64,000 bases of DNA from the NCBI GenBank assembly GCA_017651465.1, contig JAGCCX010000049.1, positions 4,909-68,908 of the forward strand, given 5' to 3'. Under the pieces are notes generated by a model. It made no database searches, had not been told where the DNA came from, and saw nothing but the letters and a program-made list of their open reading frames with translations. This document shows, one piece after another, positions 21,523 through 58,990 of this stretch (position 1 is the stretch's first letter; every line of letters begins with the position of its first letter). Source of the DNA: Bacteroidales bacterium. Lineage in GTDB: Bacteria > Bacteroidota > Bacteroidia > Bacteroidales > UBA932. Both the position numbers and the translations under genes were made by a program.

Positions 21523-21555
21523 CCCCCTCCCCGTTGTGAGTTCCGGCATTTTGTG

Positions 21556-21563
21556 TAACTTTG
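21556..21563 (+). promoter_or_regulatory. -7 promoter box (TAACTTTG) for rnhB
   Basis: TAnnTTTG, only 6 nt upstream of the ATG at 21570. Confidence 0.4.
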
Positions 21564-21569
21564 CGTATT

Positions 21570-22181: not shown

Positions 22182-22183
22182 AT

Positions 22184-36487: not shown

Positions 36488-39373
36488 TCAATAGCAGGTG
36501 TACGGTCCGTATGTGGCTTCGACGCTGTAGGAGAAGTCGGTGTCGCGTAGCTTGTAAACGTAGAACTGCGAGCCCCCGGGGCTGACACGTATCACAAAGT
36601 GGCCGCCGTAGTCCTTGACTTTGCTTCCGAGGCCCTCGACGGGTGTGCCGCCTTTGATATCGACGGTATTGTCGAGGCGTCCCTGGTGGATGTTGGTTAT
36701 AAACACGTCACCCCACTGGCGGTGGAAGCTGAAAGCCGGGTCGCCTGGCTTGTCGGAGTCGAATATCTGGGCCACGGTTACTTTGGGCCGCAGTATGTTG
36801 GAGGTCGCGGCATCTATGGTATTGTAATACATATGGTGGCCGGCTTTCATCGCCTCGACCTTCTTGTTGAGCGAGGACACGATCTTCTGCATCACCCCCG
36901 TCTGGCAAGCGCAGTCGCCGCCGGAGTAATAGTCAAAGTTGCCGTACGATATGAGCACGGTGGCGCAGAGGCCATTTTCGGTCAACGAACCGCCGTAGGA
37001 GGTGAAGCTGCTGCCGTTCCAGTACTTACCGTTGGCTCCCAGGTTGTACACGGTGAAGTCGTACGAACTGTCGTACTTGAGCACGAACTGCTTCTTGTAA
37101 TTGCCGCTGGCGGTCATATTGAAGGCGTACCATTCCATACCGTCGTTGGTCTTGCGGTACTGGGCGAATTGCCTGAAATCTTCATATACGCTCTCGCTGT
37201 AGTCCGAAGAAGACGGGCTCGACCCCGGTCCGCAGCGGTCCACCAGCTTTTTGATGGGAAGGTCGTCATATACCGCCATCACTCCGGTGCGGCAGTAGCC
37301 GTCGCCCGAACTGCCGTAGGCCGCGCGGTGCTGGCCCATATGATCCTGATGGTAGTGGGTAAGGAAGAAGAAGTCGAGATAATCGTGCCCCGTGGGGCCG
37401 AGGAAGTACTTGGCGTAGGTGGTATAGACCTTATAAGGGCGTATGCCGGCCGAAGGTTTGCGGTCCACTGCGGTGGCGGAACTTGTCTCGTACTCGCCGG
37501 CGTCAATCATCATCGAGGTTCCGTCGGGCATAATCACCAGTGTGCATTCGCCGCGCCCCGAATTGATGGCGTGGATGTCGAGATAGCCTTTCTGCCAGGC
37601 GGGAAGCGTTTTTTCGCCGGGCTGGGGTATGGGATCGGGGTCTGAGGTACCCTCGCAGAGCACAGGCCTGATGGCAAGGCACTTCTGCACGTGCCCCACG
37701 CTCCAGGCGGCGTCGGAGTTGAGGTGAATGGTGTAGCCGTAGTCGCAGCTGTTGCCGGCACGGAAGCCGAGAATGGTGGTGCTATGGTCGGAGTCGGGGT
37801 ATTTGGCAAGGTCGAGTCCGGAGAATACGGAAGAGCGGTAGTAGCCCTGGGTGTTTACGTAATTGATTGATAAATTGCCGTTTATAAAGCGTCCCCGGCC
37901 CGTCTTCGGAAGGAACAGGCCGCTTTCGAGGTCGGCTTCCGTGAACTCGCGTGCAGTGGTGTTAAGGGTGGATTCCTCCCACGATGGGGTACTTGTGAGG
38001 AGGATTCCGTAAATGCGGTTGTTCCCGACGCTAACGTATCCTGCCTGCCCGCTGGCGTTCGTGGGAGCGCTTCCGGCGCGCAGAGTCTGTATTTCTGCAG
38101 ATTCGGGCATACGGTATTGCCCTTTGCTGGCCCAGAAAGCCACGTCGCCGTGGAGGGCGGATCCGGTGGCGAAGGAGCCGCCGGAAGGAGAGGCAAAGCA
38201 GTCATCTCCTGTTACTTCAGCGGCATCAAGGTCATCGGCGCTGCCCCCGGAGGCGCTGAAAATGCGCCCCGAGATGTTGTACTTGGCTGTGGTGGGGAGC
38301 ATATAGCCTGCATCGGACTTATAAGCATCGCCCGCCAGGCCGCCCCAGTTGAAACGGTCGAACGCGGTGGCGCTTTGGGTGAAGGTGACGGCGTTGCCCG
38401 AAGTGCCCACCTGGTCGCAGCCCAGGAATTCATATTGATGCGAGGCTATGCGCCAGCCGTTCTGGAAGCCCTTTGAGGTGGCCCCTCCGCTCTGGGCGAT
38501 GAGGTTGCCCGCAGCCCAGGCTATATTCTCGACTATGCGTACCTCGCTGCTGCGGGTGCATTTGGAGCGGACGTTGAGGGTGGGCATCGCCAGATAGTCC
38601 CGGGCCCCGAGGCTTGTGGAGGAGCGGGCGAACTTTATGCTCTCCAACCCCTCGATGAAAGTCTCGTCACCGTCCAGCAGGCCGATGCTGAGTTCGGAAT
38701 AATCTCCTGCAGGGATTGCGATCCGGAACTTCAGGTCGGTGCCGAAGCCCTCGCCGCAGGGGAACGAGATGGCGCGGGTCGAGGAAATATTCTCCGTCTG
38801 AATGGGCTCGAGAGTGGAGGTATTGAAGCTGAAATCGCCGCTGATGCGCTTGTCGCCCGCCTGGAGAACCAAGGCGCGGGCGTAGGCCGGAATATCGTGC
38901 AGGGTGATGTCCACCACGGGAGCGAGGTGCACGAAGTAAAGGTCCTGCGGCTGTGAGCCCTCCAGGGCGCCCACGTGGGAGGCCATTATTGCGGGCACAT
39001 CGTCCGAACGTTCCGAGCGCCAGGGAATGCTGATGCTCCCGGGAGAGTCGTCTGCAAGCTCGTAAGGATATACGGCTACTGCCCCCGGCTGGCCTGAGAA
39101 GGAACTGCAGGTAAAGGTGCCGGAAGAGCTGCCGGCGCCGCTGGTGAGCGTGGCGCGGAACTTGGTTCCGGCCGAGTTGTACAAGGCTATCTCATCGCCT
39201 GCGGTCCAGGTCATCTTGCCGCTGGAGGCTACCGCCACCTTGCTTTCAGGCGCGGGGGTATGCGCCGTTACCACCAGGGTCCTGGCGTCTCCGGGGCATT
39301 CCGTGGTTACCTTTTCTCTCTGGCAGGCTGCCGCGGCCAGGAGGATCGCAAGCAATGCTGATAGTTTTTTCAT
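36488..39373 (-). CDS. Surface lipoprotein, 961 aa: fimbrillin-like N-module + FISUMP/DUF1566-like lectin-type module + ComEC-type metallo-beta-lactamase-fold module
   Basis: Lipobox LLAAAAC. N-module GKMTWTAGDEIALY...SGTFTC...VAVYPYE. Middle module IAWAAGNL...FWASKGQYRMPESAEIQTL...GLFLPKTGRG...AIRPV. C-terminal module LPAWQKGYLDIHAINSGRGE...IDAGE...THYHQDHMG...MKAGHH...GHFVIRVSPGG...GPYTCY. ATGA overlap with the upstream gene. Confidence 0.85.
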   Translation of the reverse strand: MKKLSALLAILLAAAACQREKVTTECPGDARTLVVTAHTPAPESKVAVASSGKMTWTAGDEIALYNSAGTKFRATLTSGAGSSSGTFTCSSFSGQPGAVAVYPYELADDSPGSISIPWRSERSDDVPAIMASHVGALEGSQPQDLYFVHLAPVVDITLHDIPAYARALVLQAGDKRISGDFSFNTSTLEPIQTENISSTRAISFPCGEGFGTDLKFRIAIPAGDYSELSIGLLDGDETFIEGLESIKFARSSTSLGARDYLAMPTLNVRSKCTRSSEVRIVENIAWAAGNLIAQSGGATSKGFQNGWRIASHQYEFLGCDQVGTSGNAVTFTQSATAFDRFNWGGLAGDAYKSDAGYMLPTTAKYNISGRIFSASGGSADDLDAAEVTGDDCFASPSGGSFATGSALHGDVAFWASKGQYRMPESAEIQTLRAGSAPTNASGQAGYVSVGNNRIYGILLTSTPSWEESTLNTTAREFTEADLESGLFLPKTGRGRFINGNLSINYVNTQGYYRSSVFSGLDLAKYPDSDHSTTILGFRAGNSCDYGYTIHLNSDAAWSVGHVQKCLAIRPVLCEGTSDPDPIPQPGEKTLPAWQKGYLDIHAINSGRGECTLVIMPDGTSMMIDAGEYETSSATAVDRKPSAGIRPYKVYTTYAKYFLGPTGHDYLDFFFLTHYHQDHMGQHRAAYGSSGDGYCRTGVMAVYDDLPIKKLVDRCGPGSSPSSSDYSESVYEDFRQFAQYRKTNDGMEWYAFNMTASGNYKKQFVLKYDSSYDFTVYNLGANGKYWNGSSFTSYGGSLTENGLCATVLISYGNFDYYSGGDCACQTGVMQKIVSSLNKKVEAMKAGHHMYYNTIDAATSNILRPKVTVAQIFDSDKPGDPAFSFHRQWGDVFITNIHQGRLDNTVDIKGGTPVEGLGSKVKDYGGHFVIRVSPGGSQFYVYKLRDTDFSYSVEATYGPYTCY

Positions 39374-42300
39374 CGGATATGATAGGTGTTACTGTCGTTG
39401 AGGGCAATGTCTTTGGCTGCGCTGCGGAGCTTTGTAGCATCAGCCGCTGCAATGCCGCAGGTGGCGGGCGCGGAACCGAAGTCCTGGCCGTACATAATCA
39501 AGTAAGAGGTGCAGGCTTTGAGGTACTGGCACTCCCTTGAGGGGTGGGCGTTGTCGGTGTAATTAAGGTAATTATAGCCTGAGGCGTAACCGTAATTGTT
39601 GCGGGCGTTCCTGACAGCCGTACCTACCGGACTGATCCAGTTAATGTTAGGGTCGGCCTCGGCCAGGGCGAAGGCTCCGGTGAGCTGGAGTTCGTCGTAG
39701 GCATCGTAGCTCCCGAATCCGTAGAAATCACCGGCCTTGGTGGGCGACGACTTGCACAGCTCGTACATTATCTGGGCACTGGGCGAGGCGGCCCGCACGG
39801 CGGCGTTCATCTCCTTGGTGTACTGAAGTATCTGCGCGGGAGTGTAGGCTGCCCCGCCGGTAACTACGGAGGCGTCTCCGTAGGCATATTCGGCGGCAAA
39901 GTAGGTGCCGTCCTGAAGAAGGGCAAAATCGTATCCGCCCTCATTTATGGCCTCCTGAGAATACTCCAGGCCGTACAGGTGGTTGTAGTAATGCTGCGAG
40001 CCCTTGAGGTTGATCCTTATTTCCAGCTGGTGGCCTTCTTTGCGGGCCAGTTCCTTGAGCAGGAAGGCGGAGCCGAAGTAATAGGTGAAGGAGTTGCCGA
40101 GGACCAGCAGTTTCTTGGTGTCCTTTACCGCGGGTGCATCGGGATAGGCGATGAAGCGCACCGCCTCGTAAGTGAGGGGGGCGAAGTATAGCTGGGCTTC
40201 CGACGAGGGGGTAAGGGTGGCCCCGTTGCCGTTGATCTTGCCCACGGCGCGAAGGCGAACCTTTACAAAGTCGTTGGTGACGGCCTTGTGCAAGGTAAAG
40301 CTCAGGACCAGAGTGCGATAGCAAGAAGATGCCGGGCGCAGTATGGTGCAGGAGTACTTGACTGAAGGGTCTTCGGTCGCCGTGTAAGGGGCGTCGCCGC
40401 TCTTCCACTCTCCGTCTTCCCAATACTCAAGCAGCCAGTACTTGGGAAGGGCCTTGTTGTTGGCGTTTACTGTAAGCATAAGGTCGAAGTCGGTTCCGGC
40501 CGGGATGCTTTCTACCGAGGAGCAGAATTCGATGCAGTCGCCCTCGTCCAGGCCTCCGATGGCAGGACAGCCGTCGGAGTTGATGGTGTGCTTGAGCGAC
40601 CCGCTGGCCTTGGTCCGGCTGGTGGCGATGAATGCCGTGCCGGTAGTGGATGACCTGTTGGTGGCTATCGCCCGTCCGTTGTCTATCCACTCCTTTCCGG
40701 CCGCGGTGGGTGAGCTTGCGCTGCCGTAGAAGCCGGAAGTTATTTCCCATAACGCAGGGAATCCGTTGCCCGATGCCTCGGGGGTCGGAGGATCTACGGT
40801 GGGCTCGGAAGGAATAGTGGCCAGATAGACAGGGCGGACAGACAGTCCGGCAGGAGGGCCGAACAGATTGCAAGTGCGTGAAGAAGAAATGGTTATGCTC
40901 TCAGATGATACGGAGTCCCCGAATATCGGGCGTCCAACAGAGGAGCCGTCGGAGTGCATATAGAGCATTTGCGGACGGTGGCTCTGTACGCCCGAAGCTG
41001 CCATAGCCGACGACCAGTAGGCTCCGGTGGTGCCGCCATCGGTTATTTCGGAGCTGGCAGGGGTCCAGTTGGCAAGGACGGCCTTGGTCTCGACAGCCCT
41101 TTCGGCGCAGGGCTTCCTGTAGCCCGCCAGGGGGAGGAACAGACCGCTCTCCATATCGCCCTCGTCAAGCTTGCGGAAGCTCAAGTCGATGGTGCGTGCC
41201 TGCCATTCTCCGCAGGTGGTGAACAAGATTCCGTAGATGCGCTGCCCCGAGGCCTCGTAATAGCCGGCCTGCTGGTTGGCATTGTTCACAAGTGCCTCAA
41301 AGTCAGAGGGCCCGGGCATCATATACTGGCCCTTGCTGGCCCAGAAAACAAGGTCGCCGTAGTAGCTGGAGAAGGTCTTTACGCTTGCGGGAGTGCCGTT
41401 GGTAGCCCATTCTTTGGGATGGGTGTTGCCGTCGTTGTTGCCGCTGTAAAAGAAGTAGGGGGCGCCTTTGCCGGTGCCGTCCAGAAGGCTGTAGTCGAAG
41501 GCGCGCTCGCCGGTGCCGTCCCAGTAGCGGAATAATCGGCCTTGAAAGTCAAGTGCAGCCCCGCGCGGCCAGATGTAAGTGAAGTATGCCACCAGAGTGC
41601 CGCTGGCGACCCCTTTGTTGGGATACACGCTCACGCTGTCGGTTTGATAGGACGCGGCCGAGATTCCTCCCCAGTTGAAATGGTCGTAGTTCGACTGAGT
41701 GTCGCTGCCGCCCTTAAAGTCCCACTGGTTTGAGTGTAAGCCCCATCCGGGGACCCAGTTGTCCCGCGAGACAGACTGGTCACGAAGCAGGTTTCCCCTG
41801 GCCCATTTGGTACCGTGCACCTTGATGAATTCGGAGCGTGAAGCGCCCGTGAGTGCGCGTATGTTGAGGGCGGGCATCTGCACGAAGTCGCCAACCTTGA
41901 GGCTTGCCGACGTGGGCGGAACCGGAATGTCGCAGCCCTCCAAAGGGTCTCCGTCTCCGTCCAGTACCTGTACCTTGAGGTCGGTAAAGTCGTAGGCCGG
42001 CACGGGGAAATACAGTTCAACGGTGGCGTCGGGGCCGTATGCGGTTTTGGGCGGGAAGTAGATGATGCGGCTGTCGGCAGGGCCTCCCGTGCTGAAGCTC
42101 ACCCCGTCGGCGGATGACTTGATGGTAAAGTCTCCGGTCAACTGGGCCCCCGTTGCAGATTCCAGCTTGAACGCTCGTGCGTAAGCAGGCAAGTCCTTGA
42201 GGGTGAAGGCCATAATTGACATAAGGTGGCTAAAATGGACGGCGTTGATCTGGTCGCCGGACAGTTCGAGAGGCGATGCCATCACCGCCGGAACATTGTC

Positions 42301-42663
42301 GGAGTATTCGACATAGGACGGTAACGATACCGTGCCGGCCCTGCTGCCGGCAAACGCTGCGGGATGAACCGCAAACCGCGTGTCGAGGGTGCCTGAGATG
42401 CTGCCGGTGAACTTGCCGGAGTTGGTGCCGGCGCCTTCCGACAGGCTGAGGTCGAACTTGTCGCCGCTGGTGTTATATACGGCAATTGCATCGCCCTCGG
42501 TCCACGTCATCTTGCCGCGGTCGCTGGCGAGTTTGGTGGCAGGGATCGAGGCTTGGACCGTGATGCTGCGCAGGTCGAGGCATACGGGACTCTCTTCCGC
42601 CTCTTTGGAGCAGGCGATGGATGCCAAAGCCGCACAGATAAGAATTGTCACTGCGGGTCTCAT
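39370..42663 (-). CDS. Surface lipoprotein, 1097 aa: fimbrillin-like N-module + FISUMP/DUF1566-like module + unknown module + SGNH-like (DUF4886-type) C-module
   Basis: Lipobox ALASIAC followed by SKEAEES. N-module GKMTWTEGDAIAVY...SGKFTGS...FAVHPAAF. Middle module TKWARGNL...VFWASKGQYMMPGPSDFEAL...GLFLPLAGYR...SVRPV. C-terminal module KKLLVLGNSFTYYFGSAFLLKELARKEGHQLEI...DFALLQDG. Confidence 0.83.
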   Translation of the reverse strand: MRPAVTILICAALASIACSKEAEESPVCLDLRSITVQASIPATKLASDRGKMTWTEGDAIAVYNTSGDKFDLSLSEGAGTNSGKFTGSISGTLDTRFAVHPAAFAGSRAGTVSLPSYVEYSDNVPAVMASPLELSGDQINAVHFSHLMSIMAFTLKDLPAYARAFKLESATGAQLTGDFTIKSSADGVSFSTGGPADSRIIYFPPKTAYGPDATVELYFPVPAYDFTDLKVQVLDGDGDPLEGCDIPVPPTSASLKVGDFVQMPALNIRALTGASRSEFIKVHGTKWARGNLLRDQSVSRDNWVPGWGLHSNQWDFKGGSDTQSNYDHFNWGGISAASYQTDSVSVYPNKGVASGTLVAYFTYIWPRGAALDFQGRLFRYWDGTGERAFDYSLLDGTGKGAPYFFYSGNNDGNTHPKEWATNGTPASVKTFSSYYGDLVFWASKGQYMMPGPSDFEALVNNANQQAGYYEASGQRIYGILFTTCGEWQARTIDLSFRKLDEGDMESGLFLPLAGYRKPCAERAVETKAVLANWTPASSEITDGGTTGAYWSSAMAASGVQSHRPQMLYMHSDGSSVGRPIFGDSVSSESITISSSRTCNLFGPPAGLSVRPVYLATIPSEPTVDPPTPEASGNGFPALWEITSGFYGSASSPTAAGKEWIDNGRAIATNRSSTTGTAFIATSRTKASGSLKHTINSDGCPAIGGLDEGDCIEFCSSVESIPAGTDFDLMLTVNANNKALPKYWLLEYWEDGEWKSGDAPYTATEDPSVKYSCTILRPASSCYRTLVLSFTLHKAVTNDFVKVRLRAVGKINGNGATLTPSSEAQLYFAPLTYEAVRFIAYPDAPAVKDTKKLLVLGNSFTYYFGSAFLLKELARKEGHQLEIRINLKGSQHYYNHLYGLEYSQEAINEGGYDFALLQDGTYFAAEYAYGDASVVTGGAAYTPAQILQYTKEMNAAVRAASPSAQIMYELCKSSPTKAGDFYGFGSYDAYDELQLTGAFALAEADPNINWISPVGTAVRNARNNYGYASGYNYLNYTDNAHPSRECQYLKACTSYLIMYGQDFGSAPATCGIAAADATKLRSAAKDIALNDSNTYHIR

Positions 42664-42667
42664 AGCA

Positions 42668-42805
42668 TCAATAAGTTAAGTCGGAATCCCATTCACCCTC
42701 GCGGTATTCCATATCCTCCAGATTGGACTGGCAAAGCAACTGCCGGGGAACTTGCTCCCCCCAGCAGGCCTGCGGCGCGGAATAATTGTTCGTTTTAGGT
42801 ATCAT
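42668..42805 (-). CDS. sORF family member 1 (45 aa): MIPKTNNYSAPQACWGEQVPRQLLCQSNLEDMEYREGEWDSDLTY
   Basis: This is the C-terminal part of ORF-track entry 42668..42904, taken from the internal ATG at 42805. The TGA stop lies 4 nt before the ATG of the 1097-aa lipoprotein gene. It is homologous to the sORFs at 13993, 45435 and 59009. Confidence 0.5.
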   Translation of the reverse strand: MIPKTNNYSAPQACWGEQVPRQLLCQSNLEDMEYREGEWDSDLTY

Positions 42806-42928
42806 ACCTTTTCTTCGTGTTAACAGAAATCCTCGTACTCCTAATGCGATTACCCCGGGCTTCAGCACCCGGATGCCTTCATACAATGAGGCACCCAGGT
42901 GCATTCAACCAGGTTTCTACCACCACGT

Positions 42929-45415
42929 TTACTCAAACGTTGCCCAGATGGTGTTAAGTCCGTCGGTGGATACGACACCGGAGGCGGTGATGCCGTAATC
43001 GGAGCCGGCGAGGCTGGCGCCGAAGTTGGAGGAGGTCACAGCGACATTGTTTACAATGCACGCTGACGAGACCTTGATGGGTTTGGCCGAAGAGCCCCAG
43101 CAGCTCTTTGTGGAGGTGTTGGAATAGCGCCCTATCACTGCTCCGGCACTTCCTGCGTAGCTGCAGGAAACGGTGGCGGATACAAAGCAGTCATCACCGG
43201 TGAAGACGTCTATCGACGAAGAATTGTTGTTCTGCAGGCCGATAAGTCCGCCGGCGCTGTGGGTATTGGCCGGAGTCTCGGAAATAACGGTTATGGTTCC
43301 GTAGCTTGAGCACGCCTTGAATGATCCCAGGGTAGAATTGCCGGCCAGTCCGCCCAAATACATTTTGGCGACAGACGAATAAGAAGTAACCGAACCGTAG
43401 TTCACGCAGTTGGTGCAAGTGCCCCTTTGCATATAACCTACAATGCCGCCGTGGCGCATATTTGTGTTGGAGGTCTGTACCATATCGCACACTGCCCCGG
43501 CCGTTTCGCTGCCGGATTTGCCGTTCACGCAAGCGTCAATGAGTCCGTCTTCACCAGAAACCATTCCGGCAATGCCGCCGTAGCAAGACTCGATGCTGTG
43601 GTTACCCGTCTTGGTAATGGCGCCAAGGTTGGTACACCCGCTGATTAAAGCATCGTTGGAAACACGTCCGACTATACCGCCACCGGTGGCGAAGGAAGCA
43701 GTACTCTGGTTATAGCCGTTAATGTCTCCGTTATTGGTACAGTTGGAAACCACAATATTCCTGGCGGAAGCATCTGCCGCGCTTCCGTCCATACCTATGA
43801 TTCCACCCAGATAGATCTGGCCTGCCTTGACATTTACGGTAGTTTCAACAGTCCCCGAGTTAGAGCAATTAGTAATGGTTACGCCGGAAAGTGTGTTGCC
43901 GGTGCGGCCGGCTATACCTCCCAAGGTGTTCACGCCCTTGTTGGAAGAAGCTTTGATACGGGATATTTTGCCGGAATTAGTGCACCCGCTTATGGCTGCC
44001 TTGCCGGAAATCAGTCCTACGATACCGCCGTAATAGTTGTTGCCTGCAGTGCTCGCATTCATCGTGACATCCGCGTAGTTGTGGCAGTTTGAAACTTGAT
44101 TCTCGGAGCCGCTCATAATCTGGCCGAGGATTCCGCCGACGTAAACTCCGTCAATTGCATTCTCAACCGTTACGGGAATATAATTCTTGACGTTGCTGAT
44201 CTGGACGTTCTTTACACGGGCGGCAAGGGCGCCGGCGTAGCCTACCTTTGCACTGTTCACGACCAGGCTGCTTTCGTCTCCGTCTTTACCCAGCGTGAGG
44301 TCTTTTACACGAATTCTATCCTCGATGGAAGCTATGATGGAGAAGAATCCACCGTATTCGCTTGAGGTAACAAGCTGGATGTTGTAGATGGAGTGACCTG
44401 CGCCGTCAAAAGTGCCGGAGAAGTGGCCAGAATTCTCATTTCCGCTAACAGGCTTCCATTCGCCTCCGCCGTAGTTGATGTCGGCGCCCAGCTTGACGGT
44501 TTCGCCTGCGGTGTAGAAATCGGCCATAGAGGCCCATTTATCGAGGTCTTCCTTTGTTTTGATGGTTCCGTCGAACCAGTTCAGGCTGCCCAGGTTCTCG
44601 AACTTGCGGCCTCCGTTAACAGGAAGTGAGAAGCCGGCAGTTGAGGTACCGGTGCGGCTTGCCTTCTGGAGTGAAGACCCGGAGCCTTTTGAAAAACCTA
44701 AAATTATGCGTCCGACAGATGTCTGGGGCCATACTACGGCAAAATAGTTCTGTCCTGCGGTAAAGCTTCCGCTGACCTTGACGGTGGGCTTGCTGCCTGC
44801 CACGACCCCGGGCTCGGGAGTGACGGGGGCATCACCGATAATCTTTATTTCTCCTCCATTGGGATCGTCGGCCTGGACATAAATAGTGTTGATGCCGCTT
44901 TCGGGCACCTGGATCTCTACCAGCGAGGTGGCGTTCTTGAAGCTTACCTTGTCGGGTGAGGTGCTTGTGCCAATCTGCACAAGTGCTGCGGGATCTACCA
45001 CGCCACCTGCGGGAATGACCTGCTCGGTGGGCAGATAAAGCATAATGGCGTCAGCGGCGGCTCCCTCGGGAATGCTTGCCTCGGATAGTGCCGATGCAGG
45101 GTAAACCAGGGTGTAGGAGCTAGCCGAAGCTATGCTGACAGCGAAGGAGGCAGTTCTGCCGCCGTCCTCGATGTCATCCGCGGTAATAGCAGTAGATACG
45201 GCCCAAGTACTTCCGTTGTACACGGCAATCTGGTCTCCCTCCTGCCACACTACCTTGTAGGCGTCGAGGTTTGCCTTGGTAGGCTGGTCAAGGGTGGCGG
45301 TGAAAACGATGGTGTCGGAAGCAGTGGTCTCGGGAGCTGCTTCTTTGTTGCAGGAAAGGGCGGCAAGAGCGGCCGCGGCAACCAGTATATAATTTACAAA
45401 CTTTTTCATTTTCAA
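42929..45415 (-). CDS. Surface lipoprotein, 828 aa: fimbrillin-like N-module + GLUG-motif repeat region
   Basis: Lipobox LAALSC followed by NKEAAPE. N-module YKVVWQEGDQIAVY...TASFAVS...TLVYPASA. At least eight G-G-[IL]-[IVA]-G units are present: YGGIVGLISG, LGGIAGRTGN, LGGIIGMDGS, GGGIVGRVSN, YGGIAGMVSG, HGGIVGYMQRG, LGGLAGNSTLG and AGGLIGLQNN. Confidence 0.83.
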   Translation of the reverse strand: MKMKKFVNYILVAAAALAALSCNKEAAPETTASDTIVFTATLDQPTKANLDAYKVVWQEGDQIAVYNGSTWAVSTAITADDIEDGGRTASFAVSIASASSYTLVYPASALSEASIPEGAAADAIMLYLPTEQVIPAGGVVDPAALVQIGTSTSPDKVSFKNATSLVEIQVPESGINTIYVQADDPNGGEIKIIGDAPVTPEPGVVAGSKPTVKVSGSFTAGQNYFAVVWPQTSVGRIILGFSKGSGSSLQKASRTGTSTAGFSLPVNGGRKFENLGSLNWFDGTIKTKEDLDKWASMADFYTAGETVKLGADINYGGGEWKPVSGNENSGHFSGTFDGAGHSIYNIQLVTSSEYGGFFSIIASIEDRIRVKDLTLGKDGDESSLVVNSAKVGYAGALAARVKNVQISNVKNYIPVTVENAIDGVYVGGILGQIMSGSENQVSNCHNYADVTMNASTAGNNYYGGIVGLISGKAAISGCTNSGKISRIKASSNKGVNTLGGIAGRTGNTLSGVTITNCSNSGTVETTVNVKAGQIYLGGIIGMDGSAADASARNIVVSNCTNNGDINGYNQSTASFATGGGIVGRVSNDALISGCTNLGAITKTGNHSIESCYGGIAGMVSGEDGLIDACVNGKSGSETAGAVCDMVQTSNTNMRHGGIVGYMQRGTCTNCVNYGSVTSYSSVAKMYLGGLAGNSTLGSFKACSSYGTITVISETPANTHSAGGLIGLQNNNSSSIDVFTGDDCFVSATVSCSYAGSAGAVIGRYSNTSTKSCWGSSAKPIKVSSACIVNNVAVTSSNFGASLAGSDYGITASGVVSTDGLNTIWATFE

Positions 45416-45434
45416 TGTCTTTTAAGATTATACA

Positions 45435-45569
45435 CTAGTCGCTCCATACGATATCGTCCACGCTTGTGGGCTCTTCGAATTCACCACCGCTGGCCTGACA
45501 CAGGCCGAGGGTGCAGTCATAAGGTTCCGCGTAAACCTGCGGAGGGGTGTAAGCCTTTTTCTTTGTCAT
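45435..45569 (-). CDS. sORF family member 2 (44 aa): MTKKKAYTPPQVYAEPYDCTLGLCQASGGEFEEPTSVDDIVWSD
   Basis: Hand translation of the minus strand gives ATG at 45569 and TAG at 45435-45437. It lies 21 nt after the stop of the upstream MBL gene and 19 nt before the ATG of the GLUG lipoprotein gene. Confidence 0.5.
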   Translation of the reverse strand: MTKKKAYTPPQVYAEPYDCTLGLCQASGGEFEEPTSVDDIVWSD

Positions 45570-45590
45570 AATATGTGTGTGTTTGTGATT

Positions 45591-46877
45591 TTATTCGCAC
45601 TTGATGGGCCCCTCGATCGATTTGACCTTGTACAGGTTGTTGGTGTCGTCGAGCTGGTATATGTAGAACTCGCCACCGCCGGGGGCTACCCTGATAACGG
45701 TGTGCCCGTTGATATGGCAGCGGTCGTACAGATTGGCGTTGGGGGTTGAAATCACCGGATCGATGCAGGTGAAGTACAACGATACGTCCTCGTAGTAATA
45801 CTTATGGTCGAGAAGGGCTTCCACAGTGCTCAGCATAGGCTGGTCGGTGCGCTGGGCGAAGCTCTGGGTGACCACTACGCGCGGCTTGAGTATGCTCATC
45901 TGTTCTGCAGGCAGACAGTTGACCGACATATGGTGGTCGGCCTTCATAGCCTCGATGGGCCTGCCGATCACCTGGGCCACGGGCACCGCCATCTTGGTGT
46001 TGCCGCCCGCGTCGCCGGCAGTATAATAGTCGAATTTTCCGTAGCTGATAAGGGAGATGCAGGAATTGCCGTTCTCATAAGGAATGGTGCCGCCATATGC
46101 ATCTACTATGGTGCTGCCGTTCCAGTACTCTCCGTTGACGGCGTAGTTGAATATCTTGAAATCGGGGTACTTTGCCTTGTTGTAAAGCAGTACCAGCTGC
46201 TGGTCGGTCCCGGCCTTGAACCGTTCCATCACCAGCCCCTTCTTGGATGTAGCATACTTTACGAACTCGGTGTAGTCGCCGACAGTCTTTGCACTGTAAT
46301 CCTTGCCGCTCTTGTCGATAAAGGCGTACTCGGGGTCGTCGGCGCTCCAGGCGCGGTCGAGGAGCTTTTTGTAGGGAAGAGTAGCATACAGGGCCATCAT
46401 TCCCGTGAGTGTATATCCCTCGGAACTTATGGTAAAGCCCTTGCCGGACGGGGTTCCGTAGTGATCGATGTGGAAGTGGCTCATCACTGCATAGTCCAGG
46501 TAATTGTGTCCCGTAGCTTCGAGGAAGTGCTTCATATAGCGCGCCTGGGTAAAGTAGGCGCGGGTGTTTGCGTCAGGTCTTTGGGTCACGGATACAGGCG
46601 ACGAGGTCGAGGTTACCGTCTCGCCTGCATCAATCATCATCGTGGTGCCGTCGGGCAGAATGAAGAAAGTACATTCTCCGCGGCCGGTACTTATGGCGTG
46701 GATGTCAAGCCAGCCCTCGGCCCACGGGGGGAGGGCTTTCCCCACCTCTGCCTCGAGGGGAGTCCTGATCGTTTCCTGCTTGTCGGGGCCTGTTTTGTCC
46801 CCGTCGTTTTTGTTGCACGACAGCGGGAGCAGGAGAGCCGCCGCTAAAAAATATAAGTAAAATTTTCTCATTGGCAC
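45591..46877 (-). CDS. ComEC-type metallo-beta-lactamase-fold lipoprotein (428 aa)
   Basis: Lipobox LPLSC followed by NKNDGDK. Contains LPPWAEGWLDIHAISTGRGE...IDAGE...SHFHIDHYG...MKADHH...GHTVIRVAPGG...GPIKCE. Confidence 0.85.
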   Translation of the reverse strand: MPMRKFYLYFLAAALLLPLSCNKNDGDKTGPDKQETIRTPLEAEVGKALPPWAEGWLDIHAISTGRGECTFFILPDGTTMMIDAGETVTSTSSPVSVTQRPDANTRAYFTQARYMKHFLEATGHNYLDYAVMSHFHIDHYGTPSGKGFTISSEGYTLTGMMALYATLPYKKLLDRAWSADDPEYAFIDKSGKDYSAKTVGDYTEFVKYATSKKGLVMERFKAGTDQQLVLLYNKAKYPDFKIFNYAVNGEYWNGSTIVDAYGGTIPYENGNSCISLISYGKFDYYTAGDAGGNTKMAVPVAQVIGRPIEAMKADHHMSVNCLPAEQMSILKPRVVVTQSFAQRTDQPMLSTVEALLDHKYYYEDVSLYFTCIDPVISTPNANLYDRCHINGHTVIRVAPGGGEFYIYQLDDTNNLYKVKSIEGPIKCE

Positions 46878-48055
46878 TTGAACGGTCCGTCTACTTGGAG
46901 AACCCGGTATTCAAAGTCGGTGTCGTCCAACAAATATACATAAAATTCTGAGCCACCCGGCATTACGCGAATCACGATATGCCCGTTAATGCCTGCGGCC
47001 TTGTCGTATAGTTCTTTGTGCAGGCTCCTCTGCTCAGGGCCTATATTGGTAAAGTAAAAGTATTTAGGCCCGGGGTACACGGTGTCCGTACCGAGCAGCC
47101 GGGAGAGAGTTTCGATATCGGGCTGGATATCCCTCTCGTAGAAGCTATGGGTCACTACCACCTGCGGACGGAGTATGGTCATAGTCTCGTCCTTCATAGT
47201 GTGGTACGACAGATGATGGTCGGCCTTCATAGCTTCAACCGGCCGGCCGATAGATTGCGCCACCGGCAGGGCGACCAAGGTATTGCCGCCAGCGTCGCCA
47301 CCGGTGTAGTAGTCAAAGTCGCCATAGCTTAGCAGGAAACAGCAGGATGCGCCGTTCTCGCGCATCAGTGTATCTTGGTACACATTCACTCTCTTCTTGC
47401 CGTCCCACACTACGCCGCTGGCCGCATAGTTCCGCACCACCAGTCCGGGATAACGGCAGGGGCGGTGCCGGAGACGTATCTGCCGCCGCGAGCCCACCTT
47501 CATCGCCTCGGCCTTCATCCCGTCGTGCTTGCAGGCGTACTTTACGAACTTTGGATAGAAGCCGCTGCCTTTGGATGAGCTTGGGAGCTGGGCCCCGGCG
47601 AAGTCCGGCCAGGCCCTGTCGAGGAGCCGCTGGAAAGGGATATTGGCCTCCACGCCGGCGATTCCGGTGAGTTCATATCCTCTCACGGGATCGGGCTCCA
47701 TCCATTTCTCAATCTGGCCGATATGGTCGTTGTGATAATGGGTGACGACGGCGTAATCCAGCTTGCCTTTACATACTGACGGCAGGAAGTGCCGGATATA
47801 CCGAGAGTACACCTCCACCGGCCTGGTCTGTCCGTCCGGCTTTGGAGGAACCTTGTCGAATTTCGCGGGCTTGTAATCAACGAACTCGCCTGCATCGACC
47901 AGTACCGAGGTCCCGTCGGGAAGGATTATGAAAGTGCACTCCCCGCGGGATGAATTGATGGCGTGAATGTCGAGGTACCCCTCCTGCCACGGGGGCAGGG
48001 GGGACCCGACAGTAACGGCTGCTGCAACTATGTTTGCCAGCAGAAGAAGCATCAT
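46868..48055 (-). CDS. ComEC-type metallo-beta-lactamase-fold secreted protein (395 aa)
   Basis: Signal-like N-terminus. Contains LPPWQEGYLDIHAINSSRGE...VDAGE...THYHNDHIG...MKADHH...GHIVIRVMPGG...GPFKCQ. 4-nt overlap with the upstream gene and 10-nt overlap with the downstream gene. Confidence 0.85.
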   Translation of the reverse strand: MMLLLLANIVAAAVTVGSPLPPWQEGYLDIHAINSSRGECTFIILPDGTSVLVDAGEFVDYKPAKFDKVPPKPDGQTRPVEVYSRYIRHFLPSVCKGKLDYAVVTHYHNDHIGQIEKWMEPDPVRGYELTGIAGVEANIPFQRLLDRAWPDFAGAQLPSSSKGSGFYPKFVKYACKHDGMKAEAMKVGSRRQIRLRHRPCRYPGLVVRNYAASGVVWDGKKRVNVYQDTLMRENGASCCFLLSYGDFDYYTGGDAGGNTLVALPVAQSIGRPVEAMKADHHLSYHTMKDETMTILRPQVVVTHSFYERDIQPDIETLSRLLGTDTVYPGPKYFYFTNIGPEQRSLHKELYDKAAGINGHIVIRVMPGGSEFYVYLLDDTDFEYRVLQVDGPFKCQ

Positions 48056-49995
48056 TTCTTGGTGACTTTTATGTCGAACACGAAGATACGCGGGGCGTTG
48101 GATGCACCCTTGGGACAGTCGATCTTGAGTTTGGTGTTGGCAGTCAAGCCGCTGGCCTCCAGACGAATGTGCGATACGGGCTTGTCGATGTCGGCATTAT
48201 TCCACGAATGCGGGAAATAGTCGTTGTCAACCAACTCCAGCGTGGTGCCGCCATTCTGGAAGCTGCTCAATGCGGTTGAGGCCTCGGGGAAACTTGCTCC
48301 GGCCTGGCTGGCAGCCACATAGGCGTCTCGGACAATGGTGCCGGAATTGAAAGTTCCGCCATTCTCGAGAATGAAGAACACAGGGTCGGTGGAAGATGTG
48401 GAGAAACGGGATATTTCTATCTCGATTACTGCATCGGTGCTGCCCTGGATGCTGCTGAATGCAGGCGTAGTCATGGCTCCGGCAATGGCTCCGGCGCAGA
48501 GCTGCAATGCACTAGGACGCTCCGAAGCATATGCGAACACCCAGTCCTGAAGGCCATAAGCCTGCATATATTCTGGCTTGGCTTCGGCAGCGGAAGAAGC
48601 ATCCTCGGGATAATCGAAGGTGAAGTTGCCGTTGTTCTGAGTAACAGTCCCAGACGCCGGCAGATACCCGTCGTAAACATCCACTTTGCTGCCGTTGCCC
48701 CCTGCAGGCGCCATATAATCGCCGCCCATTGTGCAGAGGTCAAAGTCTTCATGGAAGATAACGGCGGGATCGGGCTCTTCAACCAGCCGGATATTGTATT
48801 TGGGAGCTGTCGGATCGGAAATGTCGAAGCGCACGTGCATCTTGCCAGGACTGGTAAGGTTGATGGTGAAGGGGTTGTTGGCAACAGCGGTACTTGCCAT
48901 GGTGCCTATGGCCCTCTTGACATAGTAGGTCTTCACGCTTTTTCCTGCGCTCTTTATACCGGCTACGGGCAGAGCAGAGTTATCGGAAGAGATGGAGCCC
49001 AGGCCGCCTGCACCGGAGAAGGTTGCAAAACCGAATGGTTCGCCCTCGAGCTCGACAACGAAGCTGGTGCTTGCGGGAACCTCGACTTCACCTTCGAATA
49101 CCCCGTCGGATACTTCATCCAGGACGCTGCGTTCACCACCTATGTTGATACGGCAAGGAGGTGCTGCGATTTCGCCGCAAAGAACAATCATATCGTGCAT
49201 TTCGGCCCTTGAAACCCCCGTAGTATAGTCGCTGAGGGGCTGGCCTATGACTTCACGGTCTTTGGCGTCGCGGAACGATGCGTTAATGACGGAATAGTCG
49301 GCAGCCGGAACGGGAAGGAAAGCGTAAACGCTCTTTCCCGCAGCACTTACTAGCAGCTCTGCGTCACCCTTATCAATGGCATCGGCAGGCCTGATGCCGC
49401 GGTCGAGCACATCGGACACGGCGCATTTGAAAGTGCCGCTCAGGGCTCCGTCAGGGCTTGAAAGCAGAATTTTGGTAGCATCGGCCGGATAATTGTTGAT
49501 GGTAAGCTTAAGGAAGCCCAGTGCCTGCTTGAAGGCAAGGTTCCAATCGTTGCCAATGGCTGCGAGCATAACTCCCGGATAGGTGGAAGACACACTGGCC
49601 TTGTAGCTGCCGGGTACCTTAAGGCTTATGGACGCTCCGTCGCAGGAAACAGCGGCCGAAGCAGGATATACGGCTACGCTGCCAAGTTCCTTGCCGGAGG
49701 GAATGGTTCCCTTGAAAATGGCGCGTTTGGTATCGCCTGTTCCGTCTAGGCTGAAGGTCACAAGGGTGCCGTCGGTGCAGGCGACTGCAATCTGGTCGCC
49801 TCCGTCCCAAGTCCCGTGCCCTTTCTCGTCCATAAAGGCCTTGGTCTCAAGGTTCTCGAAAGTTGCGAGGAACGATACTTCCCCAGTACGGGAGAAGGTT
49901 TCGTCCGGGACCCAGGATTCGTAGCTATAGTCTTTGCAGCCGGCGAGCAAAGCTGCTGCCGCAGCAAATATTGCAATATACTTTTTCATATCCAT
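48052..49995 (-). CDS. Surface lipoprotein, 647 aa, in the SusE/F position: fimbrillin-like N-module + unknown C-domains
   Basis: Lipobox LLAGC. N-module GHGTWDGGDQIAVA...RAIFKGT...VAVYPASA. It starts 7 nt after the SusD stop. I cannot assign the C-terminal ~350 aa. Confidence 0.78.
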   Translation of the reverse strand: MDMKKYIAIFAAAAALLAGCKDYSYESWVPDETFSRTGEVSFLATFENLETKAFMDEKGHGTWDGGDQIAVACTDGTLVTFSLDGTGDTKRAIFKGTIPSGKELGSVAVYPASAAVSCDGASISLKVPGSYKASVSSTYPGVMLAAIGNDWNLAFKQALGFLKLTINNYPADATKILLSSPDGALSGTFKCAVSDVLDRGIRPADAIDKGDAELLVSAAGKSVYAFLPVPAADYSVINASFRDAKDREVIGQPLSDYTTGVSRAEMHDMIVLCGEIAAPPCRINIGGERSVLDEVSDGVFEGEVEVPASTSFVVELEGEPFGFATFSGAGGLGSISSDNSALPVAGIKSAGKSVKTYYVKRAIGTMASTAVANNPFTINLTSPGKMHVRFDISDPTAPKYNIRLVEEPDPAVIFHEDFDLCTMGGDYMAPAGGNGSKVDVYDGYLPASGTVTQNNGNFTFDYPEDASSAAEAKPEYMQAYGLQDWVFAYASERPSALQLCAGAIAGAMTTPAFSSIQGSTDAVIEIEISRFSTSSTDPVFFILENGGTFNSGTIVRDAYVAASQAGASFPEASTALSSFQNGGTTLELVDNDYFPHSWNNADIDKPVSHIRLEASGLTANTKLKIDCPKGASNAPRIFVFDIKVTKK

Positions 49996-50001
49996 TAAAT
50001 G

Positions 50002-51804
50002 CTAGTAACCGGGGTTCTGGTCTTCTTGATTGATTTTAGGGTTGGTGCGAATTTCCGTGTCGGGCAATGGCCAGAGTTCGTCCTTGCCTGTCTGGAAGAA
50101 CATGTTGATAAGCACCCTGAGGTTGAAGTCCTTGCCGTCCCAAGTCTGGGCCGGGTCGTACGAAACGGTCCAGTTCTCGTCGATGGTCGGCTTGGCGTTG
50201 GAGAGATTGTTCTTGAATGCGGGAGCGTATTGCGGTCCGTTGACCACCTTGGCTGCAAGCGGCCTGCCGTCGGAGAGTTTCCAGCGGCGGATATCGAACC
50301 AGCGAAAGCCTTCGGCACAGAGTTCGACGGTGCGCTCGTAACGCAGAGCGCTGCGGAGTTCCGCCCTGTCGAGAGTAGTGATCTTAGGCATCTTTACCCT
50401 CTGTCGTATCTGATTGATATCGCTCTGGGCCCTCTTCAAGTCGCCTCCGTTCATTTCGATATTAGCCTCGGCGTCGATGAGGAGCAGCTCGGCGTAGCGC
50501 ATTATGCACACGTCAAGGTCGTCCTCATAGCTGGTGGTGAGGGTCTCGCCGTAGTAGGCTTTATCGGCGAACTTGCGCCACAAATAGCCTCCGGGGCCCT
50601 TGGTTCCGTTGGGTCCGTACTCGCTCTTGTTACCATAGACGTCGTTGTTGTTGACCATGGCGTTGGTGTTATAGTCCCTGACCTGCTTGGCGTTGGGGTC
50701 GGTGCTGTACTCAACATTGTTTATACGGGTATCGGAACGCAGGCAGTACAGGTCGAGACGCGGATCCCTGTGGTTCCAAGGGTCCTGCCAGTTGTACAGA
50801 GGTGACTCGGTGATGGACTTGCCGTCGGTGCATTGGAAAGTGTCCATAAGCGCCTGTGAAGGACCGCAGCCGGCGGCGCCGTTGGCAACACGGGAGGAGT
50901 ATGTGTACACCATGGAGTGCACGTTGGAAGCTGCCAGTTTGTTGTATTGGATGGCCCACATCCACTCGTCGCAGGTTTCTCCCTCAAAGCCGAAGAGTTC
51001 GGAAGCGGAGGGCTCTCCCTCAGTTAGGGCGTTGGGATAATAGGTGCAGTCAAGGGGCTCGAGAGTATAAACACCTTCGGAGAGTTCCATCGCTTTGCTC
51101 GAATACTTGGCGGCCTCGGCATAGCGTCCCCAGTTGAGGCAGATACGTGCCTTGAGGGTGTAAGCGGCAGCACGTCCGATACGGCAGGAGCCCCACTTGG
51201 CCTTCTCCCAGCGAACCGGAAGGGCGTCCAACAGGTCGTCGTCCATTTCTTCGAGGATACGGTTGATTACCTGCTCCCTGGGAGTACGCGGGTATGCGTA
51301 GTCTTCCAGTGTAAGGCAGTGGTCTATGAAAGGAATATCGCCATAGAACTGGCAGCCCATATCATAGATATATGCCCTCAGGCACAGGAGTTCGGCCTTG
51401 AACTGCAGGTACGTTTCCTCGGACATCTTATCCTTGATGTCGTCGAGCTTGTCTAGTACCAGATGTATACGTCCGGCAGTCTTGTAGATGCGGCCGTACA
51501 GGTATGTGGCATCGCTGTTGGTCTGTGTGAGGGTGGACGTGACAAAGTAGTCCCAGCTACGCAGGCCCACGCGGTGAGTGCCGATATCGGTGATGTTGTC
51601 GGTGAAGCGGGTAGGGAAGTTGCTGTACTGCAACTCACTGTTCGCCAAGTTCTTGTAGCTTACCAGAACGCCACTCAGGGCCTCTTCCTCGCTGGCGGGG
51701 AAGGTTCCGGTGGACGGTCCGTTGAGGGGATAGCGTTCCAGGGTTTTGTCGCAAGCGGTCAGCGAGAGGACCGATATCATTATGAGTATAATAATCTTTT
51801 TCAT
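50002..51804 (-). CDS. RagB/SusD-family nutrient uptake outer membrane lipoprotein
   Basis: Lipobox LSLTAC. TPR-like SusD pattern (...RAYIYDMGCQFYGDIPF..., ...RYAELLLIDAEANIEMNG..., ...RYERTVELCAEGFRWFDIRRW). Confidence 0.93.
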   Translation of the reverse strand: MKKIIILIMISVLSLTACDKTLERYPLNGPSTGTFPASEEEALSGVLVSYKNLANSELQYSNFPTRFTDNITDIGTHRVGLRSWDYFVTSTLTQTNSDATYLYGRIYKTAGRIHLVLDKLDDIKDKMSEETYLQFKAELLCLRAYIYDMGCQFYGDIPFIDHCLTLEDYAYPRTPREQVINRILEEMDDDLLDALPVRWEKAKWGSCRIGRAAAYTLKARICLNWGRYAEAAKYSSKAMELSEGVYTLEPLDCTYYPNALTEGEPSASELFGFEGETCDEWMWAIQYNKLAASNVHSMVYTYSSRVANGAAGCGPSQALMDTFQCTDGKSITESPLYNWQDPWNHRDPRLDLYCLRSDTRINNVEYSTDPNAKQVRDYNTNAMVNNNDVYGNKSEYGPNGTKGPGGYLWRKFADKAYYGETLTTSYEDDLDVCIMRYAELLLIDAEANIEMNGGDLKRAQSDINQIRQRVKMPKITTLDRAELRSALRYERTVELCAEGFRWFDIRRWKLSDGRPLAAKVVNGPQYAPAFKNNLSNAKPTIDENWTVSYDPAQTWDGKDFNLRVLINMFFQTGKDELWPLPDTEIRTNPKINQEDQNPGY

Positions 51805-51810
51805 GGCTCC

Positions 51811-55218: not shown

Positions 55219-55225
55219 AGTGTTA

Positions 55226-56245: not shown

Positions 56246-56305
56246 CTTTTGTGGTCTTGTACAGTATAGACAAACGAAAGACTTGTTACCCTAAACGAAA
56301 ATATA

Positions 56306-56313
56306 TATATTTG
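56306..56313 (+). promoter_or_regulatory. -7 promoter box (TATATTTG) for the PUL ECF sigma gene
   Basis: TAnnTTTG, 20 nt upstream of the ATG at 56334. Confidence 0.5.
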
Positions 56314-56333
56314 TGCAGAACGACTGCTTTTTA

Positions 56334-58948: not shown

Positions 58949-58954
58949 AACGTG

Positions 58955-58962
58955 CAAAGATA
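58955..58962 (-). promoter_or_regulatory. -7 promoter box (TATCTTTG on minus strand) for the 56858..58948 lipoprotein gene
   Basis: The plus strand reads caaagata, 6 nt upstream of the ATG at 58948. Confidence 0.45.
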
Positions 58963-58982
58963 CTATTTTTATCATAATTGTG

Positions 58983-58990
58983 TATCTTTG
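58983..58990 (+). promoter_or_regulatory. -7 promoter box (TATCTTTG) for sORF3 / metallophosphoesterase lipoprotein operon
   Basis: TAnnTTTG, 18 nt upstream of the sORF3 ATG (59009). It sits back to back with the minus-strand box 21 nt away. Confidence 0.5.

Follow-up and report, generated by a model that had tools for sequence, protein, structure and literature searches.

Translated leader open reading frames (ORFs) control export-related genes in the SecM-secA, MifM-yidC2 and VemP-secDF2 systems, and TnaC is another leader of this type. Here we examine a family of small ORFs (sORFs), of about 45 codons each, that immediately precede genes of large surface lipoproteins in a 64,000-nucleotide (nt) stretch of the genome of a Bacteroidales bacterium (lineage UBA932; GenBank assembly GCA_017651465.1, contig JAGCCX010000049.1, positions 4,909 to 68,908 of the forward strand), the whole of which we call the window. 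Like SecM, MifM, VemP and TnaC, these sORFs are short and placed directly upstream in the same transcript, with a stop codon placed anywhere from 23 nt past the downstream start to 27 nt short of it, and they combine a conserved amino acid sequence that includes a Trp with nearby RNA structure and an exported downstream product. Unlike those leaders, the family peptides have no N-terminal export signal and their conserved residues vary in distance from the stop codon; the hairpin, too, sits within the sORF, 60-80 nt away from the start of the lipoprotein gene, which it does not visibly sequester.

In lasso peptide precursors, Thr (rarely Ile or Val) occupies the penultimate leader position, Cys is allowed as the first core residue and an Asp or Glu at core positions 7-9 closes the ring. 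In these precursors the leader motif YxxPxL spans positions -17 to -12, counted from the first core residue (PMC10368454), and the family peptides share with them an overall length of ~45 amino acids (aa), an identical spacing from the Tyr through the Pro and the hydrophobic residue to the putative first core residue, a small residue at that position and a short acidic 'core'. They differ from lasso precursors in the absence of Thr at position -2 and of nearby B/C maturase genes, in being multicopy and tied to lipoprotein genes, and in their Bacteroidales hosts. Type III secretion chaperones are also small and acidic, and are encoded beside a large exported protein, one per substrate, with which they co-vary; those chaperones, however, are folded dimers of ~130 aa that serve another secretion system, whereas the peptides described here have 45 aa, no predicted structure and Sec-exported lipoproteins as neighbours. 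The N-terminal module shared by the downstream proteins (N-module) looks like the type V pilus anchor and fimbrillin-like lipoproteins Mfa2 and BDI_3522 in its lipoprotein signal, its predicted beta-sandwich and a weak Mfa_like_1 match, although, unlike in Mfa2-type anchors, it bears large enzymatic or binding domains (GLUG, leucine-rich repeat (LRR), metallophosphatase and metallo-beta-lactamase (MBL)) and the likeness comes from a low-confidence model. In kind, the family belongs with the conserved upstream small ORFs and the small partner proteins.

Small reading frames linked to lipoprotein genes

The initial annotation, made from the letters of the window, had pointed out four sORFs and proposed that they form a co-evolving family rather than a set of chance ORFs. 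When re-read from the window all four exist with the translations given (Table 1), and their gapless alignment from the Tyr onward is reproduced. The motif Tyr-x-x-Pro is invariant among the four, a Cys stands exactly 17 residues past the Tyr in three of them and is replaced by Ala in the fourth (sORF4), and the distance from the sORF stop to the lipoprotein start ranges from 7 nt inside the gene to 25 nt before it, the latter value being that between the end of sORF2 and the likelier ATG at 45409 (MKKFVNY...); measured to the TTG at 45415 it is 19 nt. Two details had to be amended. sORF4 had been taken as a minus-strand ORF and is in fact on the plus strand, its 3'-terminal 7 nt overlapping the start (59131) of the plus-strand 787-aa lipoprotein gene, and the number of members with a Trp in the acidic tail stands at three (sORF1, sORF2 and sORF4) but sORF3 is not among them. 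When the 64 kb are translated in all six frames, the pattern Y.[AP]P[QV][AVI] occurs exactly four times, each time in one of the four sORFs; the count is circular, these ORFs being the ones from which the pattern had been derived.

Independent support for the family comes from a profile hidden Markov model (HMM), which finds homologues in the same position in dozens of genomes while decoys remain weak. We fetched 78 loci (~1 Mb) around relatives of the GLUG lipoprotein in species-representative genomes, the search being seeded with an alignment of that lipoprotein; these loci belong mostly to rumen or gut Bacteroidales metagenome-assembled genomes (MAGs), with some Firmicutes MAGs among the weakest matches, which are partial. 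Scanning their six frames with the iterated family HMM gave 65 non-redundant matches, corresponding to 54 unique peptides; the best reversed-sequence decoys had E = 0.12-1.8 across iterations and 0.48 in the final search, and sORF4 scored E = 7.6e-08. Orthologues of sORF1 are found upstream of 1085-1098-aa lipoprotein genes in loci L009, L017, L020, L021 and L022, those of sORF2 upstream of GLUG lipoprotein genes in L007, L009, L011, L015-L020 and L022, and P0003, P0005 and P0009 are homologues of sORF3.

The HMM check that had been proposed with the four sORFs places nearly all matches 5' of N-module lipoprotein genes, and substitutions between orthologues preserve the frame (see below). Among the HMM matches, the position in front of genes that share this N-module hardly varies: 58 of the 65 end no more than 40 nt from a long ORF, the remainder being mostly the first sORF of a tandem pair, and the W..GD.I motif of the N-module is present in 57 of the 65 downstream ORFs. 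Throughout the family the lipoprotein start lies on the same strand, from 23 nt before to 27 nt after the sORF stop. Examined from the side of the lipoproteins, ~39 GLUG-type genes have a placeable start, and 26 of these have a significant sORF immediately upstream and 5 more a recognisable divergent one (~31/39). When 1.84 billion representative proteins were searched with a profile, nine further small proteins (39-53 aa) of the same layout were obtained, and word-indexed searches of 5.8 billion clusters gave a handful more copies; the searches of both collections together returned only about two dozen called copies, the named ones being entered as 'hypothetical protein' of 'Bacteroidales bacterium'. 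In the contigs found by peptide search a small ORF is always followed by a large gene within a few nt. These loci were seeded with the peptide and not with the lipoprotein, and their showing the same arrangement supports the linkage between the two.

The arrangement may be repeated along one locus, as in L009 (40 aa - 1085 aa - 45 aa - 818 aa - 49 aa - 474 aa) and L011 (44 aa - 830 aa - 46 aa - 829 aa), and it extends to other downstream genes, a 39-aa sORF preceding the gene of a 1014-aa LRR/M64 protein in L014. Tandem family pairs before a single lipoprotein gene occur in five loci (Table 1), among them L008, where the two small ORFs precede a GLUG lipoprotein gene, and in some tandem sORFs 0-1 nt separate the reading frames. 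In L027, L028 and L033 both copies are kept as two distinct subtypes, each ending DA(Y/F)xDWD; in L027 and L028 the pair lies behind a LacI-type regulator gene, and in L033 the upstream gene is of similar size. The MBL genes of the window prompted the idea of a conserved upstream partner gene (PqqB is an MBL-fold protein), which was rejected given the heterogeneity of 24 immediate upstream neighbours (MBL-like, LacI regulators, PHP, M14 peptidase, GDPD). The long high-scoring sequences P0006, P0008 and P0011 were rejected, having matched only via many short repeated stretches; P0008 and P0011 are internally repetitive sequences unrelated to the family. The only clear exception to the lipoprotein rule is found in L013, where the gene after a 53-aa member encodes a 502-aa GH43-like protein with a signal peptide and with neither lipoprotein Cys nor N-module.

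Conservation across many uncultured Bacteroidales genomes, purifying selection (see below) and a near-invariant position bear out the proposal of a real co-evolving family as opposed to chance ORFs. The statement that no described family matches also holds in Pfam, NCBIfam and the PDB: the NCBIfam search of the peptides gave no match, the PDB profile search none at E <= 10, and the sole Pfam match, to CotJA (E = 0.049, 13.9 bits), is below the cut-off of 25. The literature that we searched contains no description of such an upstream sORF in Bacteroidales, and thus in domain libraries, structures and searched literature alike we found no description of this family.

Table 1. Coordinates of the sORFs, their neighbours and other features (positions in the window unless a locus is named)
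Feature	Coordinates	Strand	Remarks
sORF1, MIPKTNNYSAPQACWGEQVPRQLLCQSNLEDMEYREGEWDSDLTY	42668..42805	-	45 aa; inside operon; stop-to-ATG gap of the 1097-aa lipoprotein gene (ATG at 42663) 4 nt
sORF2, MTKKKAYTPPQVYAEPYDCTLGLCQASGGEFEEPTSVDDIVWSD	45435..45569	-	44 aa; inside operon; start 21 nt past the stop of a 428-aa MBL-like gene
sORF3, MIEPRFFTALRYMAPQAEIAATCTHDLLCDSVTHYEVDSELVIVDGPEL	13993..14142	-	49 aa; no Trp; first ORF of transcript; ends 11 nt 5' of the 899-aa LRR lipoprotein gene
sORF4, MEKHRYIPPVIEVFAAVSGGVIAESSSESLEIPEMIEEQLEW	59009..59137	+	42 aa; Ala in place of the family Cys; first ORF of transcript
Stem-loop in sORF1, CTGCTGGGGGG-AGCAAG-TTCCCCGGCAG	42740..42767	-	11 bp, G-U pairs counted
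Bacteroidota -7 promoter box, TATATTTG	14167..14174	-	begins 32 nt 5' of the sORF3 ATG
Bacteroidota -7 promoter box, TATCTTTG	58983..58990	+	begins 26 nt 5' of the sORF4 ATG
1097-aa lipoprotein gene	39370..42663	-	4 nt after sORF1; product with shared N-module
826/828-aa lipoprotein gene	42929..45409	-	after sORF2; GLUG-motif similarity weak, below cut-off; N-module resembles the Mfa2 pilus anchor
899-aa LRR lipoprotein gene	11282..13981	-	11 nt after sORF3
787-aa metallophosphatase lipoprotein gene	59131..61494	+	start overlaps last 7 nt of sORF4
Paralogous lipoprotein gene, no sORF	36488..39373
Paralogous lipoprotein gene, no sORF	48052..49995
Paralogous lipoprotein gene, no sORF	56858..58975
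ECF sigma gene	56313..56873	+	diverges from the operon of sORF1 and sORF2
MBL-like gene	45591..46877
MBL-like gene	46868..48055
Peptidase S51/ATP-grasp fusion	14261..16201	-	646 aa; directly upstream of sORF3
926-aa ORF	22178..24958	-	no Pfam match at E <= 0.001
286-aa ORF	21291..22151	-	no Pfam match at E <= 0.001
Tandem family pair	L008 5536..5932
Tandem family pair	L018 4703..4975
Tandem family pair	L027 1072..1423
Tandem family pair	L028 1593..1895
Tandem family pair	L033 1485..1908
Member before GH43-like protein	L013 8001..8162		53 aa

Peptide anatomy and selection

Across the 54 unique peptides the length is 38-55 aa (median 45) and the layout consists of Met and basic residues, Tyr-x-x-Pro, a 13-residue segment, (L/I)-Cys-(Q/E/S)-Ser and an acidic tail with a near-terminal Trp, as exemplified by the predicted peptide AYTPPQVYAEPYDCTLGLCQASGGEFEEPTSVDDIVWSD. 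Tyr-x-x-Pro is invariant, and the segment between the Pro and the Cys is constant in length and highly variable in sequence. A Leu is found 16 residues past the Tyr in 42 of the 54 and the Cys 17 residues past it in 47; a Cys also occurs 5-7 residues past the Tyr in 31 peptides, the fifth residue being I, V, L, A or M in 27 and Cys in 18. The part from the conserved Cys onward comprises 15-25 aa, with 27 % Asp plus Glu, and has a Trp within its last six residues in 48 peptides, at 0-6 residues from the stop (spread approximately evenly over 0-4) and at a distance from the Cys of 12 to 21 or more. The peptides have a pI of ~4.1 and a net charge of ~-5, and AlphaFold, given an alignment of 15 sequences, predicts them to be without secondary structure (pLDDT 70, pTM 0.17). 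Reading them as mini-lipoproteins or Sec signals was discarded, as there is no hydrophobic core, most members have Asp, Glu, Arg or Gln between the Pro and the Cys, and the position just before the Cys holds Leu, Ile or Phe in 51 of the 54 rather than the small residue of a lipoprotein signal. Diversity-generating hypervariation of the variable segment was also rejected, given that seven same-species copies differ by 0-3 nt only.

This layout suggests a possible relationship to modified or exported peptides, either lasso-like or of another class dependent on the recognition element (RRE, the leader-binding domain of a maturation enzyme) of peptides that are made on the ribosome and modified after translation (RiPPs), in which Tyr-x-x-Pro-x-hydrophobic would be the leader motif, the core would begin at the Cys and the maturase genes would lie elsewhere in the genome. 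The Tyr, the Pro and then a hydrophobic residue or Cys are indeed at exactly the lasso leader positions relative to the conserved Cys, which is the would-be first core residue in 47 of the 54 peptides; the would-be cores measure 15-25 aa, 42 of the 54 have Asp or Glu at core positions 7-9, and a front half of fixed length joined to a variable back half is RiPP-like. The acidic residue at positions 7-9 is, however, a small excess (78 % against ~60 % expected from a tail with 27 % Asp/Glu), Thr at position -2 is found in none of the 54 (L in 19, G in 9, V in 8, A in 5, I in 5 and others), and several copies per genome, each joined to a different lipoprotein gene, would be unusual for precursor genes. 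Nor is there a maturase gene in the neighbourhoods examined, since no asparagine-synthase-like cyclase, transglutaminase-like protease, PqqD/RRE, radical-SAM or peptidase-ABC exporter gene is present in the window, in the gene tables of eight separate loci seeded with the peptide or in the set of 24 upstream neighbours. We consider a modified-peptide precursor improbable and do not class the family among the lasso precursors. The protein encoded directly upstream of sORF3, a fusion of a cyanophycinase-like peptidase S51 with an ATP-grasp domain, was also considered as a peptide ligase or modifying enzyme and set aside, this pairing being absent from every other locus examined.

Several results argue that the peptide is a product under selection. 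The ORF is intact across the 54 unique sequences, and frame and start are kept among orthologues at only 48-61 % nucleotide identity. Between distant orthologues dS is saturated and dN is 0.41-0.58; where dN/dS could be computed it takes values of 0.2-0.4 in distant pairs and 0-0.12 in close pairs, and the invariant Tyr, Pro and Cys positions are encoded by differing synonymous codons between members. The identity of the peptides to sORF2 declines together with that of the adjacent lipoprotein (77 % vs 74 %; 44 % vs 47 %), so that their rate of evolution is close to that of any ordinary surface protein. Stops or frameshifts in the orthologues, or a lack of any conservation, had been named as outcomes contrary to the family; the orthologues have no stops or frameshifts, and conservation is present. 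Taking all these results together, the sORFs are very probably protein-coding mini-genes selected as protein, and neither chance ORFs nor an RNA element.

RNA structure, translation and the role of the peptide

The 60 nt beginning at the Tyr codon are more stably folded than expected. Under mononucleotide shuffling the sORF segment has a mean z of -1.43, compared with -0.39 for windows in the downstream genes and -0.02 for the 3' half of the sORF (p = 1e-6); under codon shuffling the mean is -1.51 vs -0.21 for control coding windows (p = 7e-8), and under synonymous recoding -1.16 vs -0.17 for the controls (p = 1e-6). When values are averaged over 17 sequence clusters to account for relatedness, codon shuffling gives -1.16 (p = 0.011). 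The stem-loop of sORF1 is one example of the hairpin tendency of the Tyr-to-Cys segment in the family, and the sORF1 orthologue of L021 (2979..3119) contains in its coding sequence a perfect 13-bp inverted repeat, GCAGAGCAAATGC-ATGG-GCATTTGCTCTGC, in another register than the stem of the window. A conserved RNA secondary structure was rejected on the RNAalifold result, and we take the hairpin excess as a suggestive, predicted tendency rather than as an established element.

The excess of predicted structure in the 5' half, with its 11-bp stem in sORF1 and its perfect 13-bp stem in the L021 orthologue, could also be read as the mark of an RNA or DNA element, for example an intercistronic stabilising hairpin whose ORF is open by accident. 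Such an element does not explain why frame, start and four key residues are kept at the nucleotide identities given above, with synonymous changes at conserved residues, and it has neither a match in Rfam nor conserved base pairs; moreover, the 3' half has no excess structure and yet keeps the Trp and the acidic character. This possibility, largely refuted as it appears by the substitution pattern, is in our view very remote.

The contexts in which translation begins also differ between the two genes of each pair. Pairing is less probable at the sORF starts (0.40) than at the lipoprotein starts downstream of them (0.52; p = 1.5e-7), and the sequence upstream is 70 % AT for the former and 60 % for the latter; ten lipoprotein starts without an sORF have a pairing of 0.50 and 71 % AT. 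As had been reported for the window, no TAnnTTTG box precedes sORF1 or sORF2, none being found within 130 nt upstream, and sORF3 and sORF4 each have one. The tight stop-to-start spacing, the abutting tandem copies, the position as first ORF, the better initiation context of the sORF and the hairpin tendency favour a translated leader. We tentatively prefer the reading that the sORF may be translationally coupled to the lipoprotein gene as such a leader and may act mainly in cis.

Bacteroidota mRNAs are not known to carry Shine-Dalgarno sites. In the scenario of a translated leader, ribosomes would load at the AT-rich, unstructured start of the sORF, behind a promoter or within a long operon, would melt the hairpin-prone 5' half as they translate it, and would terminate beside the lipoprotein start, in a sequence context less open and poorer in AT. 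The leader would in this way bring ribosomes to a start codon in a poorer context and without Shine-Dalgarno sequence, and translation of the lipoprotein would be coupled to, and possibly gated by, that of the sORF. The conserved residues imply that the peptide itself also matters, and it may act as a nascent chain on the ribosome or as a released partner made 1:1 with the lipoprotein precursor.

A number of observations weigh against the translated leader. Over the 17 clusters the effect of synonymous recoding is marginal (-0.68, p = 0.059), two of the four window members (sORF3 and sORF4) have no excess structure, the hairpins are out of register between orthologues, and RNAalifold on the orthologues finds no covarying pairs and only four invariant ones. 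Pairing is no higher at lipoprotein starts behind an sORF than at the ten without one (0.52 vs 0.50, p = 0.42), and any dependence of these starts on coupling is therefore putative. Three paralogous lipoprotein genes of the window have no sORF (Table 1). Finally, the conserved residues are distributed over the whole peptide and the distance from the Trp to the stop is variable, which is unlike a classical arrest peptide and fits a trans-acting peptide at least equally well.

Because of this last point, a partner acting in trans is almost as likely as the cis leader, and the two are not mutually exclusive. Here the released acidic peptide would bind its cognate lipoprotein precursor in the cytoplasm, at the signal peptide or at the Mfa2-like N-module, and serve as an escort or anti-folding factor until Sec export, while coupling would only match the amounts of both products. 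Taken by itself this is a possibility that we would not expect to prevail, although it accounts for several features of the family. Conserved residues occur throughout an acidic and predicted unstructured peptide that resembles a linear binding motif; the lipoprotein gene is the sole conserved neighbour, and the N-module the sole part common to the different downstream proteins; peptide subfamilies pair with particular downstream protein types; and the retention across species of two diverged tandem copies (L027, L028 and L033) is easier to understand if each has a protein function. On the other hand, the three paralogous N-module lipoproteins without an sORF have no such peptide, the RNA-level signal is left unexplained, and we know of no cytoplasmic escort for lipoproteins in Bacteroidota, which also counts against a partner.

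Genomic setting and biological meaning

The window is chromosomal and includes housekeeping genes such as those of AspRS, MurB, DapA/B and an EF-G-like protein. Both sORF1 and sORF2 sit within a long operon on the minus strand; it is of the polysaccharide-utilisation type, and its order is FecR-type anti-sigma, SusC-like with an STN domain, SusD-like, 647-aa lipoprotein, two MBL-like genes, sORF2, GLUG lipoprotein, sORF1, 1097-aa lipoprotein, 961-aa lipoprotein and S9 peptidase; the MBL-like C-terminal region of the 961-aa lipoprotein was read from a sequence motif and has no match in Pfam. Secreted or lipoprotein phosphoesterase-type proteins are numerous across 36488..58975 and 59131..61494, including the two MBL-like genes, the MBL-like domains of the 961-aa and 705-aa lipoproteins and the 787-aa metallophosphatase, and related loci have PHP, Exo_endo_phos and GDPD genes. 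The phosphoesterase genes, in conjunction with those for ECF sigma, anti-sigma, SusC and SusD, suggest a utilisation locus for nucleic acids or another phosphodiester-linked polymer. Two further ORFs of the window, of 926 and 286 aa, are listed in Table 1.

An N-module is common to the four proteins downstream of the sORFs and to the three window lipoproteins without one, and it is made up of a lipoprotein signal, Cys-(N/S)-K-E and the sequence ...TKA.LD...KV.W..GD.IAV...AVYPA; the C-terminal parts of these proteins differ (GLUG repeats, LRR, metallophosphatase, MBL). The initial annotation had called the module fimbrillin-like. In support of this, the top three Foldseek matches of an AlphaFold model of modest quality (pLDDT 59, pTM 0.57) are the Bacteroidales fimbrial proteins BDI_3522, BDI_3519 and the P. 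gingivalis anchor Mfa2; the term is nonetheless unproven, for the best matches (3r4r, 4jg5 and 5nfi), with probabilities of 0.98-0.99, have TM-scores of only 0.32-0.35 with this low-confidence model. The Pfam match to Mfa_like_1 is weak and below the cut-off, and PDB profile and NCBIfam searches of the lipoproteins gave weak matches only. Adopting a conservative view, the modelled resemblance of the N-module to the type V pilus anchor Mfa2 is reasonable but not proven.

Two of the three lipoprotein genes without an sORF start from 4 nt inside to 6 nt past the stop of the preceding gene, and the third is preceded at very short distance by a promoter box of its own. These genes abut a previous gene or a promoter, and the sORFs therefore seem to be placed where the intergenic gap is longer. 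At 58940..58990 the 705-aa lipoprotein gene and sORF4 diverge from TATCTTTG boxes situated on opposite strands, ~30 nt apart.

The sORF and the lipoprotein gene form a two-gene cassette with a Mfa2-like N-module, the genomic rule that places the one before the other is unusually strict, and the family is reproducible and unannotated. A farther-reaching proposal, which we regard as rather unlikely, is that the peptide would be a new substrate-specific factor for the surface lipoproteins of Bacteroidota, either an escort for Mfa2-like precursors or a nascent-chain sensor of export capacity that licenses translation, carried on a mobile 'sORF plus N-module' cassette attached to many enzymatic and adhesive domains. 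The value of the family is limited for now, every carrier found being an uncultured rumen or gut genome. It is, even so, a well-supported addition to the catalogue of small proteins, of a kind that gene callers mostly miss. The production, control and delivery of the large surface lipoproteins of Bacteroidota are only partly understood, as is translation deep in long operons without Shine-Dalgarno sequences, and a mini-gene tied one-to-one to a lipoprotein class gives a concrete, mutable handle on both questions.

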